From Microbotryum violaceum (taxonomy: Eukaryota): a stretch of DNA of 64,000 nt. How positions within the stretch are numbered: the stretch's first letter is position 1; the number at the start of each line of letters is the position of its first letter. Location of the stretch: contig CDLV01000009.1 of the NCBI GenBank assembly GCA_001244265.2, positions 310,001-374,000 of the forward strand, in the 5' to 3' direction. Shown here piece after piece: positions 1 to 5,081 of the stretch. The notes beneath the pieces are model-generated. The model was given only the letters and a program-made list of their open reading frames with translations. It searched no databases and was not told the origin of the DNA. The translations under genes and the position numbers were made by a program.

Positions 1-570
1 TAGATGGGGAAAGTAGGTCGATGGAGACGGGATCGGGACGGAGAAGGACGAGAGCAGCGTTTCGTGCAGGGCGATCAGGTGCGCGTCCGGAACGAGCGTG
101 GCGAGCACGCATTGGTAAAAGAGGTCACCTGTGAAGTCAGAAATCAGCGTAGGGGGTGAGCGGTCAAAGCTGCGGCCTAGTGGAGTGCTCGTCACTAGCC
201 AGCTTCGTGCGCGACAAGATTTGGGGCCCCACTTGCACGTCATCTCGAGGGCGGCGTGGGAAAGACATTCAAATCATCAAGCCCGCTTTCAGGGGTACGA
301 GTACATTCAACCGAACTGACCCTGTCGGACATCCAAAAACTTGATCTCCAACCCGGGTCCTTGGATCGCGCGATCACTCTTCCACCTCGCGATCGCTTCT
401 CCTATCCTCTTGACCAGCTCGTCGACGGGCAGCCCGGGCACAATCGCATCCGACACCAGCGTCGCGTGCGGCTTGAAATAAACGGTCTGGTAGCGGTCCG
501 AGAGCGAGGTAATCAAGTCGCCGAGTGGGGACGTTGCGGGTGGGGATAGCCATAGCGAGAGACCTGACAT
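1..570 (-). CDS. CPD1: 2',3'-cyclic-nucleotide phosphodiesterase (2H phosphoesterase, Cpd1-like); 3' end runs off the window
   Basis: ATG at 570 (MSGLSLWLSPP). First HxT motif FKPHATL; after an intron (~130-320) the exon reads DLFYQCVLATL...YFPHL, the start of the second 2H motif. Confidence 0.8.
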
Positions 571-775
571 GGTGGTGATAGTAGGTGGTGGGAAGAGACA
601 GTCTAGGCTGGGCCACGTGCGATCTGTGCGCCCTGCTCTCGGCCGGGTAATGTACTGCAGGGCAGTCAGGGGTAATCCCGCATTAGTAATCCGTGGAACT
701 GGCCTTGTTCTCTGCTCTCCGCGCTCTCGCTTCTCCCTCATCACCATGGCTCATCAACCCTGAGCCTTCCATCTC

Positions 776-1213
776 ATGCCCCCGAAGCTACCCCACCTGA
801 CGCTCTTCACCTCGGGACCGCAGTGTACGCTGTGCACGGTCGCCAAAGAAGTCCTGACCGAAGCGCAGTCCCAATCGCCTTTCCATCTCCGTGTGTACGA
901 CATCCGCAAGACCGCGTCCGACACGCTCGACCAACAGATCGAACGTACGGCGTGGAGGAGGTTGTACCAGTACGACGTACCCGTTTTGCATCTTACCGCC
1001 CACGACGGTGGCTTTGACGATTTGGCGGGCAGGGGAGGGGGTGGAAGGGTGTTGAAAGGTGGGCGAGTGATGAAACATCGCATCGACCACGACAAGTTGG
1101 TCGAATTAGTCAAGAAATGGACCCAACAATTGAACGCAAAACAGGTAAGTGACTCAGCTTTCTGACGAGAAGAGAAATTTTTCCCGACTGAACCCCATAC
1201 GGCACAGGGTTGA
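776..1213 (+). CDS. Glutaredoxin-like protein (DUF836-type thioredoxin fold)
   Basis: LTLFTSGPQCTLC (CxxC), YQYDVPVLH, MKHRID. Ends KQG-stop at 1213 if the GTAAGT..CAG intron 1145-1207 is spliced, otherwise at 1165. Confidence 0.8.
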
Positions 1214-2462
1214 AAAGAGCTCGCAGCTGCTCAGCATTCCCACCACGCGAAACCACCTCCTCAACCGAGACCATCAAACGGCATCGAGCCTCACCCGAAC
1301 CTTCACCCGAATCCGAATCCGAACGCTTCCCCTTCTCCGGACCGCCCTTCTTTATCTCGTCGGCGCCGTCCCCGACCGAACCCGTCGATTTCCCGACGAC
1401 GACCATCTCGTACGACTATTCGTCCTTTGACGAGCTCACGACCTTGCCCGTACTCGGCGTCGAAGCATCCCCCTCGAACGAATCAGAGAGATCCCAGCAG
1501 TTTAAACCTATCGAGGACGTCCGACGGTGCTTCAACTGCCTAGGTACCCACCTCCTCCACGATTGTCCCTTCCGCAACGACCGTTCCGTCATCGCCCAGA
1601 ACCGTCGCGAGTTCCAAGCCGAGTATTCGATCCATGCCGGTCCAGGCTTGAGCCTCGGTTCCTCCACGTCGAACAAGGCACGAGAAGAAGATGTAGCGCG
1701 ACGACTAGGCTTCTTGAAGAGAATGCGACCCGGTGTCGTAGGGCCGGAATTGGAGGGTGCTCTCGGAATTTTAGGGTCGCAAGGGGAATGGCCTTGGTTC
1801 GACAAGTTCAGAGAATGGGGGTACCCTTCTGGGTGGACGCGCACTGCAAGGCAAGATCAAGGGGGGATGATCGATGAAGAGACAGGTTGGCTTGCTTTGT
1901 CTTTTTTCAGTGCGACGACCCTTTTGAAACCCGATACTGAGTATGAGCTCTGCCCACAGGTCTGCAAGAACTGCTTTACGTCGTGCGGCAAAGGATCCAA
2001 GGGCGAGACTCCTTGGATTGGGAAGAGGTCGAGGCGCTGCGAGTGTATGACCAAGGAGCTTCGTTTGCTCCACCGCTGGATGCGCAATCATCGTCAAAAT
2101 TATCACCTCCCAGCGAGCCTCCTCCCCCCTTACCCACCTCCACTCCACCCCCTCTACCACCGAACGCCCCTCCACCTCTCCCACCGGGTCCTCCTCCACC
2201 TCTACCCCCACCTACAATTGACTTGCCTATCTACCGAACGATTAAACTCGTTCATTACCCTTCACGACAAACGGATTTCTCAAACCTCGAGATCCATAGA
2301 CCAGACCTCTACCTGGCTAACCCCACGCCTTGGACTTCTTCGCCAGCACCTTGCGTACAAGTGGGCAAAGCGACGATGCCTTCTCCACCACCTTCGGAGG
2401 CTGTGGTGGAAGAGGAAGACCTGAGTGAACGCTCGATGGAGATCGGGAGCGAAAGTGAATGA
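1117..2462 (+). CDS. Zinc-knuckle + PSP-domain protein (ZCCHC8-like)
   Basis: CFNCLGTHLLHDC knuckle; PSP-like RPGVVGPELEGALG...PWFDKFREWGYPSGW; Pro-rich C-terminus. Introns 1145-1207 and ~1886-1959; start ATG inferred at 1117. Confidence 0.7.
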
Positions 2463-2549
2463 TGTGTAGCGAATCATGCGAGTAATTTGACAACATGTAA
2501 TGACAACAAATGAGAAACCCCACTACCCAACCTTTCTCCTTTATTTCCC

Positions 2550-4601
2550 TCACCGTACCCCCACAGGAGGTGCACGAATGGGTATACCACCCCATACAAA
2601 CTTTTCGTTCCTCCATAGGACCATTTCTTCCTCCCCTCGAGCTTCGCTAGGTTCCAGGTCGTCGTACGCGTCCGGAACGACGGGGTACGACGACGTTACT
2701 CCTTCAGTCCGGGAGGCGACGGCGGCGGCGGTGAAAGAGCCGAATCCACCACCCGTAGTACTCGAAGGTGCCGATCCAAAGGTAGAGAACCCTCCCGATG
2801 AAGGTGCGGCAGGGGTAGTAGCAGCAGCACCAAAAGCTCCTCCGCCGGCATTGAAAGCCGAAGGTGTCGAAGCCGCAAAAGCACCAAATCCCCCTCCACC
2901 GGAGGCAGGACCCGCGCTCCCCTCTGCACCGAACGCACTGCCCCCACTTCCGAATACCGAAAATGCTCCACCCGAAGCTCCGAACGCACTCGTCGTCGAC
3001 GTCGTCTTCGCAGGTGCTCCGAACGCACTGACGGGTGTCGTCGAAGTCCCACCGAACCCACTCGACCCAAAAGCCGGAGCGGCCGTCGTTGATGAACCGC
3101 TTCCAAACACCCCTGATGCGGGAGAACCGAAAGCGCTTGCTGGTGCGGCCGTCGATCCAAAACCAGTCGATCCGAAAGCGCCTGTTGTCGTAGTCGGTCC
3201 CGATCCAAAGACACCGAATGCCGAGGTCGGCGCACTGCCGCTCGTACCGAACGCCGAGACGGGGGCTCCCCCTGCGGCTCCGAACGCAGAAGGGGTCGTC
3301 GTCGGAGCCGCTGCGGTGACTCCAGGTCCCGGTGTGCCAAACGGTGAAGCCGAAGCAGCGGCCGAACCAAAACCAACCGATCCAAACGCCGGTGCGGATC
3401 CGCCCGTACCGAAAGCGGAAGGGGCGGATCCACCGGCTCCGAACGCTGATGGGGCTGAACCGCCAGCACCAAACACCGACGGCGCCGTCCCTGCCGCACC
3501 GAAAGCGGAGGTGGACCCTCCGAATGCCGAGGGGGCGGGTTTCGATCCAAAGACCGAAGGTGTGGACGTCGAGTTGGAGGAGAAGGCGCCAAAGCCACCG
3601 CCGCCGGCCGTCGAGGTCGCTGCTCCAAAAGCGCCGCCGCCCGTCGTCGTCGATCCGAACGCCGACGGTGCCCCACCTGCTGCCCCAAACGCACTCGTCC
3701 CCATCCCCGTGCCACCAAACGAATTCAAAGTCTTTTTCGTCGAACCAAAAGCGCCTCCCGAGCCAAAAACGGACGTGGTCGCGGGCGTGCCACCGAAAGC
3801 GGTCGATCCGAAAGCGCTCGATGGAGCGGCGCCGACGGCGTTCGAGGTCGAGGCTCCACCGAACGGGTTGGGTGTCGTCGAGGCTCCTCCGGCAGCACCA
3901 AAGACCGACGTCGCCTGCGGTGCCGAGCCGAACGCACCGAAGGCTGAGGTCGTCGGTACAGCACCTCCAAAGACCCCCGTTGTCGACGTCGTGGTGGAAG
4001 AGGTTGTCCCGGAGGATTGCTGCGCCGCCATGAAACGATACGCCGCGGGTAGATCTGCCAGAATGGACTTGACGGTCTGTTCTGCCTTGTTGACGAGAGC
4101 TTCTTCAGGCTGTTGGGAAGAGGGTGAATGCTATGATCAATGAACTTTACCCTAGGGCAAGTCGCCTCAACGACGACAAGAGTTGAGGCATCCGCCAGCG
4201 CGCATACTCACGTAGAGCGACGGGTTGTTGGCCTTGACGGCATTGTAGTACGACAGCCTCAACTCTTCGGGGGAGAGGTCCTGGTCCTTGATGAGGTTGC
4301 CGGTCTTGCCCGGCCCGTACGAAGACAGCGCGTAGGAAGGTCGATCGGTCGTCAAGTCGATCTTGATCGACTCAGAGCTGCGGGGAGACACACACACACG
4401 GTTTGGCGTTCAGCGCACAAGCGAATGGTTCAGAACCAAAGGGTGGTTTCAGAACACTAACGTGAATCCAGGGTTGGAAGGTGCGGCATTGCTCGTCGAG
4501 GACGGATTCGCGTGGGAGAAGCGACAGTTGTTGCCGTTGCGACATTGCCCTAGCGGGTAGTACTTGCATGGCACCGAGCTCGTGTTGCTACGGAAGCTCA
4601 T
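2550..4601 (-). CDS. FG-repeat nucleoporin with N-terminal CCCH zinc finger (Nup42/NUPL2/Amo1-like)
   Basis: MSFRSNTSSVPCKYYPLGQCRNGNNCRFSH; DLSPEELRL motif; dozens of SAFG/xFG repeats; C-terminal FVWGGIPIRAPP. Confidence 0.85.
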
Positions 4602-5081
4602 ATCTTGCGGTGTGAGAGCCGGATGGGGAGGCGAGAGGGCAAGCCCGCGACGAAAGCGGAACGCTGGTGTGGAGAGCGGACGACACCACGAAGGGCACCA
4701 AGTTCCGAGAACTGTCGACTGTCGCAGCTCGATCGCCTATCGATAGCCTCAAACCTGGAGTTTTGCGAGGTCACAAGCCCACTGGCAGTGGTGTACCCAG
4801 GAGCGGGTTGTCCCTTATGGAGCCAGTTTTACCCTGTGACAAGACAAGAGCTTCAACAACATGCCTTGATTACCGGCTCGAGCAACTGTTGAATATTTAC
4901 TGGCAACAGTTTCGCCCATAATCCGGAACTTGGCTACGTCAATCTGGAGAACCAAGTGAAATAATAGATCATTGTTGAAACTTCATCAAGGGCTCCCTGC
5001 ACCAAGGTATTGTACTGATCATACTGGTTCTTACGGCTTGGATGCCGGGTGCCACTGCAACCCAGTCGCACCTCCGAGTCG

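Follow-up and report, generated by a model that had tools for sequence, protein, structure and literature searches.

How is a gene translated whose only start codon lies inside the coding sequence of its neighbour? The question is raised by two plus-strand reading frames near the beginning of the window, a 64,000-nucleotide stretch of the Microbotryum violaceum genome (contig CDLV01000009.1, positions 310,001 to 374,000), in which a glutaredoxin-like gene (ORF1) overlaps with a ZCCHC8-like gene (ORF2). Unrelated cellular genes of eukaryotes seldom overlap in their coding sequences on the same strand, and conserved overlaps of this kind constitute natural test cases for the access of ribosomes to a second start codon. 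The parts of the locus are as follows.

776..1144, plus strand: exon 1 of ORF1, the coding sequence of the glutaredoxin-like protein (DUF836, Mgp12-type), with the CxxC at residues 17-20
1117..1144, plus strand: first coding exon of ORF2 (MDPTIERKT and the first base of Gly), in the +2 frame of ORF1
1145..1207, plus strand: intron common to both ORFs, 63 nt, GTAAGT...CAG, spliced out in the RNA-derived contig of run X6
1208..1213, plus strand: end of spliced ORF1 (GGT and TGA), overlapping the ORF2 codons G-L-K
1208..1885, plus strand: exon 2 of ORF2, with the KR-x-R-S motif, the CCHC-type knuckle at 1528-1566 and the PSP domain at about 1726-1839
1886..1959, plus strand: second intron of ORF2, 74 nt, GTTGGC...CAG, spliced out in the X6 contig
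1960..2462, plus strand: exon 3 of ORF2, with a proline-rich region, an acidic C-terminal tail and the stop codon TGA at 2460-2462

Between positions 601 and 1300, ATG triplets occur only at 650, 746, 776, 1070 and 1117. The ORF2 frame is closed upstream by the stop codon at 1189-1191, and from 1192 to at least 300 nt past position 1210, well past the knuckle, it contains no in-frame ATG. The sole in-frame ATG on the 5′ side of the junction is that at 1117, built from the last base of a lysine codon (AAA) and the TG of a conserved tryptophan codon (TGG) of ORF1; upon splicing, its frame gives MDPTIERKTG-LKRARSC. The only usable start codon of ORF2 is ATG 1117, inside ORF1 in the +2 frame, acting via the intron 1145-1207. 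Both ORFs are joined across the same 63-nt splice, and the segments 1117-1144 and 1208-1213 are therefore read in two frames. Spliced ORF1 ends with NAKQ-G-stop (124 aa, TGA at 1211-1213); with the intron retained, its frame continues to the TGA at 1163-1165 (129 aa). An earlier reading made from the sequence alone (hereafter the sequence-only reading) had proposed that ORF2 lacks its own ATG behind the stop at 1189-1191 and that ATG 1117 splices into the knuckle frame, and all of these points hold on re-checking; the splice arithmetic also bears out its claims that the shared intron ends the glutaredoxin at TGA 1213 and that the two segments are dual-coding.

The junction 1144/1208, for which that reading had called for transcript evidence, is found in RNA-derived material. 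In run X6, a contig of 4423 nt omits precisely the 63 nt at 1145-1207, with GT..AG borders, as well as 74 nt, again GT..AG, at 1886-1959. The same contig also lacks the minus-strand intron 129-320 of the upstream gene, and is therefore derived from spliced RNA. Runs X2 and X4, which are of DNA type, follow the window colinearly and contain the intron 1145-1207. This intron is really spliced. The X6 contig runs unbroken from 319 to past 2650, yet it also merges genes on opposite strands, taking in the divergent CPDase-like gene and extending past 2650 toward a convergent minus-strand ORF; its continuity is therefore uninformative on transcript ends or on a single mRNA. Run X1 (taken as RNA by guess only, at a depth of about 3 where it may be DNA, and therefore given no weight) gives one unspliced piece at 1034-1252 and none at 300-1033.

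Regarding the encoded proteins, the ORF1 product matches the Pfam profile PF05768, the family of yeast Mgp12 and mouse C330018D20Rik, over residues 8-111 (E 8.5e-12; 45.7 bits, cut-off 26) and the PDB entry 1wjk (E 3.2e-5), and both cysteines of its N-terminal CxxC, C17 and C20, are invariant in alignments of 14 and of 17 sequences. By its profile match above the curated cut-off, ORF1 is assigned as a small DUF836/Mgp12-type glutaredoxin-like protein. The ORF2 protein matches PF04046 (PSP; E 2.6e-5, 24.3 bits, cut-off 19.6) and, across knuckle and PSP, the human ZCCHC8 chains 7z4y and 7s7b (E 2.5e-10 and 7.3e-10, respectively), the former aligning query residues 100-220 with chain residues 186-297. 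The spacing of its knuckle is CX2CX3HX4C as opposed to the canonical CX2CX4HX4C, with C, C, H and C invariant in the ORF2-family alignment; against the zinc knuckle profile PF00098 the ORF2 protein (P0002) falls short of E 0.01, while relatives such as P0047 do match. A KR-x-R-S motif is conserved directly 3′ of the splice junction. Removal of the 74-nt intron at 1886-1959 restores an open frame of 402 aa, whose exon 3 runs colinear with P0004 and P0005, the models of M. saponariae and M. intermedium; exon 2 as a query returned no match in the near-length protein search. These homologies identify ORF2 as a fungal homologue of ZCCHC8 with a CCHC-type knuckle and a PSP domain. Both labels given from the sequence alone, glutaredoxin-like and ZCCHC8-like, proved right. 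Animal ZCCHC8 is the scaffold of the NEXT complex, which targets RNAs to the nuclear exosome; such a role for ORF2 would entail binding of the MTR4 helicase and an RBM7-type partner.

The same arrangement was compared across five further metagenomic lineages in which ORF2 follows the Grx-like gene (L003, L004, which equals L005, L006, L007 and L009; six with the window), two lineages without ORF2 downstream (L001 and L008) serving as controls. The start appears as xxA-TGG-ACx, that is ATG-GAC, in all five other ORF2-bearing lineages and in neither control. An A precedes the conserved tryptophan codon in six of six ORF2-bearing lineages, compared with CAG-TGG in L001 and AAG-TGG in L008; the chance of a wobble A in all six is about 0.002, or about 0.009 with L004, L006 and L007 taken as one lineage, both values being based on rough local codon usage. 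An intron of 46-72 nt occupies the same place at the junction in L003, L004/5, L006, L007 and L009. The distances from the ATG to the best donor in the six lineages (28, 58, 67, 52, 67 and 52 nt) are always 1 mod 3, and the best donor together with a CAG or AG acceptor brings the ATG into frame with ORF2 in every case. An in-frame ATG of ORF2's own is absent in five of the six. The ORF1 stop lies 3 nt past the junction in the window, is the first codon past it in L003, and precedes the donor by 3 nt in L004, L006 and L007 and by 19 nt in L009. A search among prokaryotic genome contigs for contaminating ones from yeasts turned up 19 pattern matches, none of them a relative.

The architecture is more than chance, because five other lineages repeat the ATG, its frame and an intron at the junction; the comparison shows that all three are conserved in other Microbotryomycetes, the sequence-only reading having proposed a check for conservation of the overlap in related yeasts. 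It is highly probable that the whole architecture is as described, with ORF2 starting within ORF1 in its +2 frame, a spliced 63-nt intron, the ORF1 stop 3 nt past the junction, and conservation. The pair is an old, conserved set of same-strand overlapping genes in the Microbotryum genome.

Public annotation of the locus is inconsistent, comprising fusions, truncations and splits, R. toruloides by itself having six different models. Fusions of the two genes account for 14 of 151 ORF2-family models (at least ten Microbotryomycete and four Agaricomycete, and in all at least 14 cluster representatives); within Microbotryum, M. saponariae and M. intermedium carry such annotations, and a dozen further species do likewise. 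A single Grx-ZCCHC8 protein would arise through an alternative splice site or a frameshift, and a GT four bases past the main donor, used with the same acceptor, does give an in-frame join in the window and in L003. This reading is nevertheless very improbable. The splice supported by RNA places GGT TGA right past the junction in the ORF1 frame, and the ORF1 stop precedes the donor in four of the six lineages (L004/5, L006, L007 and L009), where the main donor therefore cannot fuse the frames. Furthermore, in all 27 of 27 near-length matches the Grx-like orthologue stands alone, with lengths of 117-148 aa in Rhodotorula, Leucosporidium and others. The fusion junctions vary between models, several of them removing the conserved C-terminal helix of the Grx domain, and look like the product of predictors forced to avoid overlaps. 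Since gene predictors cannot place two overlapping genes on the same strand, the "glutaredoxin-ZCCHC8 fusion" of basidiomycete domain surveys is probably a gene-predictor artefact.

How ribosomes would reach ATG 1117 is a separate matter. The structural part of the sequence-only reading stands, in that the overlap, the shared intron and the dual coding are confirmed and deeply conserved; the three routes that it had offered, leaky scanning, reinitiation and a promoter nested in ORF1, are not separable by the present data. Tentatively preferred, at a little short of an even chance, is one dicistronic mRNA on which ORF2 is reached by leaky scanning. One transcription unit beginning 5′ of 776 would yield both proteins. 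Most scanning 40S subunits would initiate at AUG 776, and its poor context, with a pyrimidine at -3, would let a fraction leak past; these subunits would meet one AUG in the next 341 nt and then AUG 1117. ORF2 would be made from the spliced mRNA alone, because the retained intron closes its frame with stops at 1150-1152 and 1189-1191. The two proteins would then be made in a ratio fixed jointly by splicing and by the strength of the first AUG. Among basidiomycetes, leaky scanning that depends on start-codon context has been documented in Cryptococcus (PMC7049704), and Agaricomycetes are known to produce polycistronic transcripts (PMC4503453).

The contexts themselves are consistent with this route. 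ATG 776 lies in catctcATGc (-3 C, +4 C) and ATG 1117 in caagaaATGg (-3 G, +4 G), with ATG 1070 alone between them, so that the weak first and strong second start described earlier are confirmed. A reference set of start contexts drawn from long ORFs of the window, which had taken in an antisense ORF, was discarded as too crude. They are also kept in relatives: the -3 position of the ORF1 AUG is C, C, C, T and T in the five measurable ORF2-bearing lineages, and the ORF2 AUG has a purine at -3 and G at +4 in all six. This conserved weak/strong order favours leaky scanning; the ORF1 AUG context is also weak in control L008. In five of five lineages one AUG occurs in the approximately 330 nt between the two starts. 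Depletion of AUGs was considered as proof of leaky scanning and set aside, the controls being equally AUG-poor (0 and 1 extra AUG). Two other features point the other way. The intervening AUG, the Met codon of GGRVMKHRID, has G at -3, is in frame with ORF1, lies 47 nt 5′ of the ORF2 AUG and is kept in six of six ORF2-bearing lineages (Val in control L001); it counts against leaky scanning, because selection of that kind predicts its loss. In addition, L004, L006 and L007 differ less at synonymous sites close to the ORF2 AUG: their synonymous divergence is 0.78/0.73/0.27 over codons 1-64 and 0.48/0.35/0.11 over the last 24 codons ahead of that AUG.

This reduction, over the 70-140 nt 5′ of the ORF2 AUG, fits an embedded promoter or 5′ UTR at least equally well. 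Two mRNAs would then be produced, that of ORF2 from its own promoter and start site within the 3′ half of the ORF1 coding sequence and that of ORF1 ending inside ORF2; the coding overlap would be a frozen accident, and the pair would be inseparable because the ORF2 promoter is ORF1 itself. We give this reading rather less than an even chance. It is in keeping with the retention of the in-frame Met codon 47 nt upstream, and accounts for the conserved adjacency as well as a dicistron does. Close spacing with overlapping UTRs is described as usual in fungi (PMC12230235), and co-transcribed Agaricomycete genes are reported to be transcribed independently as well (Gordon et al., PMC4503453). It leaves the weak ORF1 AUG context of five of five lineages unexplained, however, and gives no cause for an ORF2 AUG inside ORF1 instead of past its stop. 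A promoter within a transcribed coding sequence of 370 nt would, moreover, be expected to meet transcriptional interference.

The conserved Met codon would also gain a role if the dicistronic mRNA were translated by termination and reinitiation, with ribosomes from ORF1, or from the short frame beginning at AUG 1070, terminating at UGA 1211-1213 and restarting at AUG 1117, which in spliced mRNA precedes that stop by 31 nt. The distance between the ORF1 stop and the ORF2 AUG in spliced mRNA is always 31-61 nt, L004 has a second in-frame AUG that overlaps the stop (AAUGA), and reinitiation after a full-length upstream ORF over a very short spacer has been shown in fungi for IGG1/IGG6 (PMC10352335). 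The weak ORF1 AUG is unexpected under this route, following the logic set out for green algae (PMC11291117), and the ribosome would have to move backward, the restart AUG being 5′ of the stop. The 115 nt before the donor contain no significant RNA structure (z = -1.31), and positions 1-5000 of the window no Rfam match. Reinitiation is accordingly regarded as improbable. The short upstream frame at 746-763 was examined as a conserved device and discarded: no ATG occurs upstream within 260 nt in L003 or L001, and those found upstream in L004, L006 and L007 differ.

In human MOCS2 (MOCS2A/MOCS2B), too, two proteins are encoded at a single locus by ORFs that overlap in different frames. The locus was initially interpreted as a dicistron with leaky scanning, and later work assigned the products, two subunits of one enzyme, to alternatively spliced transcripts. 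This history is a warning, as alternative transcripts could hold for the present pair too. Dicistronic nuclear loci translated by leaky scanning are described in the green algae Chlamydomonas and Auxenochlorella (PMC11291117). As reported there, they share with the present pair a short ORF1 whose Kozak-like context is weak, a small number of AUGs ahead of ORF2, a stronger context at ORF2 and products that are unrelated, and some of them also have overlapping stop and start codons. In contrast, the ORF2 AUG here lies 31-61 nt inside ORF1, which results in real dual coding, the junction intron is shared, one in-frame AUG intervenes, and the single transcript is a candidate. The fungal IGG1/IGG6 dicistrons (Yue et al. 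2023, PMC10352335) likewise have two full-length ORFs with almost no spacer, but their downstream AUG follows the stop, whereas here it precedes it. The Kozak-programmed leaky scanning described for Cryptococcus (Wallace et al. 2020, PMC7049704) shares the basidiomycete yeast setting and the weak first and strong second AUG; its second AUG, being in frame, produces N-terminal isoforms of one protein, whereas in the present pair the second AUG leads into another frame that encodes another protein.

The polycistronic units of Agaricomycetes (Gordon et al. 2015, PMC4503453), for which conserved gene configuration was taken as a proxy of co-transcription, resemble the present pair in their basidiomycete origin and same-strand neighbours. 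As described in that report, they consist of complete, non-overlapping ORFs, translation of the downstream ORF is not among the points addressed in its accessible text, and conservation drops outside the Agaricomycetes, whereas the present pair occurs also in Pucciniomycotina. The accessible part of its supplements contains none of the terms "glutaredoxin", "CCHC", "PSP" or "DUF836", a search that pairs given by protein number alone would escape. In the literature on Microbotryum, R. toruloides, MGP12/DUF836 and ZCCHC8, no paper on a Grx-like/ZCCHC8-like gene pair was found.

At the protein level, adjacency and the +2-frame overlap appear also in Agaricomycete gene models. The N-termini of 17 of 144 ORF2-family models are compatible, at 17 or more of 20 positions, with the +2 frame of an Agaricomycete Grx-like coding sequence, compared with at most 14 for shuffled controls and at most 16 for the +1 frame. 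The pair, anchored by a verified splice, thus appears to recur from anther smuts and red yeasts to mushrooms. We would place somewhat short of even the proposal that it is an obligate dicistronic gene, in which one capped mRNA encodes a Grx-like protein and a ZCCHC8-type adaptor with an embedded AUG, and which may predate the split between Pucciniomycotina and Agaricomycotina. If the dicistron reading is true, the pair would be conserved to an unusual depth for overlapping cellular genes in fungi and would naturally couple a redox protein to RNA surveillance, the ratio of the two proteins being set by leaky scanning and by splicing of the shared intron. The pair is also present in Rhodotorula toruloides, a widely used engineering host, where, as in R. 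pacifica, the two genes carry adjacent locus tags. The R. toruloides ORF2 models P0043 and P0186 begin with MDGTDGRGGGG..., which is the sequence expected, by back-translation, from the +2 frame of the tail of the Grx-like protein P0014 of the same species.

Two plus-strand genes, ORF1 and ORF2, occupy the initial 2.5 kb of the window, which has a G+C content of 56% and whose closest proteins are those of Microbotryum saponariae and M. intermedium. ORF1 (ATG 776) matches the glutaredoxin-like (Grx-like) family DUF836, PF05768 (45.7 bits vs a cut-off of 26), has a CxxC that is invariant among the aligned relatives, and resembles mouse C330018D20Rik (structure 1wjk, E 3.2e-5). ORF2 is a ZCCHC8 homologue: its PSP domain scores over the Pfam cut-off, and human ZCCHC8 structures align to it across both knuckle and PSP (7z4y, E 2.5e-10). 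Pfam zf-CCHC gives no match to the ORF2 protein of the window at E 0.01. The knuckle (1528-1566) is spaced CX2CX3HX4C in the protein from Microbotryum and in a small number of relatives (P0033, P0038, P0039), and CX2CX4HX4C in most relatives of the ORF2-family alignment.

The sequence-only reading proposed that these genes overlap and have one intron in common, as a candidate bicistron, and all particulars of its sequence description are accurate. The only ATGs within 601-1300 lie at 650, 746, 776, 1070 and 1117. The ORF2 frame begins at 1192, after the stop at 1189-1191, and offers no in-frame ATG ahead of the knuckle. Removal of the 63-nt intron GTAAGT(1145)...CAG(1207) links ATG 1117, inside ORF1, to ORF2 (MDPTIERKTG-LKRARSC), and the same splice terminates ORF1 as ...KQ-G-stop, with the stop at 1211-1213. 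A second intron, 1886-1959, restores a 402-aa ORF2 ending at 2460-2462.

Four public sequencing runs were compared over window positions 300-2650. Being colinear with the window, runs X2 and X4 are DNA-like, and run X1 (RNA by guess only, depth ~3) was left out of inference. Run X6 provides a single 4423-nt contig, identical in sequence to the window, which omits exactly 1145-1207 (63 nt with GT..AG ends, after a 4-base shift of the cut), as the proposed 1144/1208 junction predicted, and a further 74 nt with GT..AG ends, 1886-1959. Furthermore, the loose end that the contig shows before 319 corresponds to window 97-126, indicating that the minus-strand intron 129-320 of the upstream gene (GTCAGT...CAG; CT..AC on the plus strand) is also spliced out. 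The contig thus has spliced RNA as its source and shows use of both ORF2 introns. However, it also joins the divergent upstream gene and continues towards a convergent minus-strand frame; since it merges neighbouring opposite-strand genes, its continuity is no evidence of a single ORF1-ORF2 mRNA. The surrounding features are:

1-570, minus strand: divergent upstream CPDase-like gene (PF07823, E 1.9e-4)
746-763, plus strand: upstream ORF of five codons, MAHQP-stop, context caccATGg
2550-4130, minus strand: 526-codon open frame rich in FG/SAFG repeats, nucleoporin-like in appearance, no Pfam match

The start of the CPDase-like gene lies 205 nt from that of ORF1, and the contig is unbroken across their shared promoter region, so that one or both 5' leaders extend over this region. 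The upstream ORF, whose context is near-ideal, closes 13 nt short of the weak AUG of ORF1; were it part of the leader, reinitiating ribosomes could be carried beyond AUG 776. The feature is not conserved, loci L003 and L001 lacking any upstream ATG within 260 nt. The FG-repeat frame converges on ORF2, their stop codons lying less than 100 nt apart, and the extension of the X6 contig into this frame suggests overlapping 3' ends.

Scanning metagenomes with the Grx alignment brought up nine loci, L001-L009. ORF2 follows immediately on the same strand in L003, L004, L005, L006, L007 and L009 (L004 and L005 are identical over this region), L002 is too short to tell, and L001 and L008, with no ORF2 on either strand in the 4 kb downstream, serve as controls. 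In the window and in 5/5 ORF2-bearing lineages, the codon preceding the conserved Trp in the last Grx helix has A as its third base (GAA/AAA), giving ATG-GAC in the +2 frame; in both controls the third base is G (CAG, AAG). With a per-lineage chance of A of 0.18-0.5 (rough local codon usage, long ORFs), the chance of A in all six is ~0.002, or 0.009 with L004, L006 and L007 taken as one lineage. In every lineage the best donor lies just past the ORF1 end.

Table. Junction donor, ATG-donor distance and intron length (predicted outside the window).
Window: GTAAGT; 28 nt; 63 nt
L003: GTGCGT; 58 nt; 68 nt
L004/L005: GTGAGT; 67 nt; 69 nt
L006: GTGAGT; 52 nt; 68 nt
L007: GTGGGT; 67 nt; 72 nt
L009: GTGAGC; 52 nt; 46 or 49 nt

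The ATG-donor distance is 1 mod 3 throughout, and with a CAG or AG acceptor the ATG is in frame with ORF2, the acceptors outside the window having been chosen with the frame known beforehand. In L004, L006 and L007 an earlier TAG acceptor also occurs; the stretches between both acceptors (19, 16 and 17 nt) do not all differ by multiples of 3, which argues that they are intronic. ORF2 itself provides no in-frame ATG in 5/6 lineages, and the one in L006 falls within the putative intron. Within 4 codons past the junction, five lineages show a KR-x-R-S motif, which is present also in stand-alone models. The ORF1 stop is always near the junction. It lies past the junction in the window (by two codons) and in L003 (as the first codon), and ahead of the donor in the others, by 3 nt in L004, L006 and L007 and by 19 nt in L009. 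The ATG, the frame and the predicted junction intron of the overlap recur in five other ORF2-bearing lineages. At L004 817-820 (L005 4481-4484) a second ORF2-frame ATG overlaps the ORF1 stop (AATGA), a form typical of coupled termination-reinitiation.

As to how ORF2 is expressed, a dicistronic mRNA on which ORF2 is reached by leaky scanning is tentatively favoured. At -3, the ORF1 AUG carries a pyrimidine in 5/5 measurable lineages. The ORF2 AUG is flanked in 6/6 by a purine at -3 and a G at +4, and a single AUG lies between the two starts. Green-algal dicistrons display the same combination of weak ORF1 and strong ORF2 starts (PMC11291117), leaky scanning that depends on start context is at work in Cryptococcus (PMC7049704), and Agaricomycetes have polycistronic transcripts (PMC4503453). 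On the other hand, the AUG in between (-3 G; it encodes the Met of GGRVMKHRID) is kept in 6/6 lineages and lost in control L001, AUG scarcity is equal in the controls, and L008 likewise has a weak first AUG. Moreover, synonymous divergence among L004, L006 and L007 drops towards the ORF2 AUG (pS 0.78/0.73/0.27 at codons 1-64 vs 0.48/0.35/0.11 at codons 89-112), a fall that an embedded promoter or leader would account for; a separate ORF2 promoter nested in ORF1 is a serious possibility, ranked second. Termination-reinitiation on a dicistronic mRNA has fungal precedent (PMC10352335), but would here need backward movement of 31-61 nt and is improbable, and something else altogether takes the small remainder. 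No significant RNA structure was found in the 115 nt ahead of the donor, and the Rfam search over 1-5000 matched no family.

The nearest ORF2 relatives are annotated as fusions of both domains (505-509 aa). A single Grx-ZCCHC8 protein is nevertheless the least credible reading, being contradicted both by the splice seen in X6 and by an ORF1 stop that precedes the donor in 4/6 lineages. Near-length ORF1 relatives are stand-alone in 27/27 matches (78-189 aa; Rhodotorula, Leucosporidium, Rhodosporidiobolus and metagenomic/Logan records), several being named glutaredoxin-like or Mgp12p. HMMER with ORF2 exon 2 against 1.84 billion representatives gave 217 matches at E <=0.001; among the best 149 of these and two Microbotryum models, 14 carry an N-terminal Grx-like domain, ten from Microbotryomycetes (Microbotryum x2, Sporobolomyces x3, Phenoliferia, Rhodosporidiobolus, Microbotryomycetes sp. 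JL201, Rhodotorula paludigena, R. babjevae) and four from Agaricomycetes (Cristinia, Bondarzewia, Crassisporium, Schizophyllum). Their fusion junction varies, several drop the conserved last Grx helix, and they look like the output of predictors unable to place two overlapping same-strand genes. The Grx-like and ORF2 genes have adjacent locus tags in R. toruloides and R. pacifica. In R. toruloides, six public models (P0043, P0182, P0183+P0184, P0185, P0186) give one gene five shapes (overlapping start, truncated start, split in two, Grx-like fusion, truncated end), with lengths of 424, 338, 202+167, 527 and 272 aa.

Models P0043 and P0186 begin MDGTDGRGGGGRVDEQ, by back-translation the exact +2-frame reading of the R. 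toruloides Grx-like tail ...WTERTDEEEAAESTS. When ORF2-family models (n=144) were screened for an N-terminal stretch compatible with an alternative frame of Grx-like coding sequence, 17 were compatible at >=17/20 positions of the +2 frame, each of them with the Agaricomycete reference and one being from Daedaleopsis nitida; shuffled controls reached <=14 and the +1 frame <=16, with none >=17. Three of the 17 start ME[ET]EI[CR]VLD, the ATG being formed likewise at the first conserved Trp. As judged from gene models, Agaricomycetes share both the tandem order and the +2-frame overlap, with a longer overlap and a less fixed start.

Overlapping or dicistronic nuclear genes are known, MOCS2 being one example, and the algal loci have an arrangement of the same kind. 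Our literature search found no description of this Grx-like/ZCCHC8-like pair, nor any paper naming both ZCCHC8 and glutaredoxin; in the portions of the supplement of Gordon et al. (PMC4503453) covered, the searched terms are absent, and pairs given by number alone would escape. The pair appears to be undescribed and unusually widely conserved, and the locus, systematically mis-annotated, is directly testable in a widely engineered yeast.

Five ORF2-family models (P0071, P0117 from Schizophyllum commune, P0136, P0143 and P0164), all scoring against the Agaricomycete Grx reference, run from a true Grx N-terminus through CSLC[DE]V into an apparent retained intron, then the +2 frame and ORF2. If they are real, alternative splicing of an internal Grx intron could be a further route to ORF2 in mushrooms.
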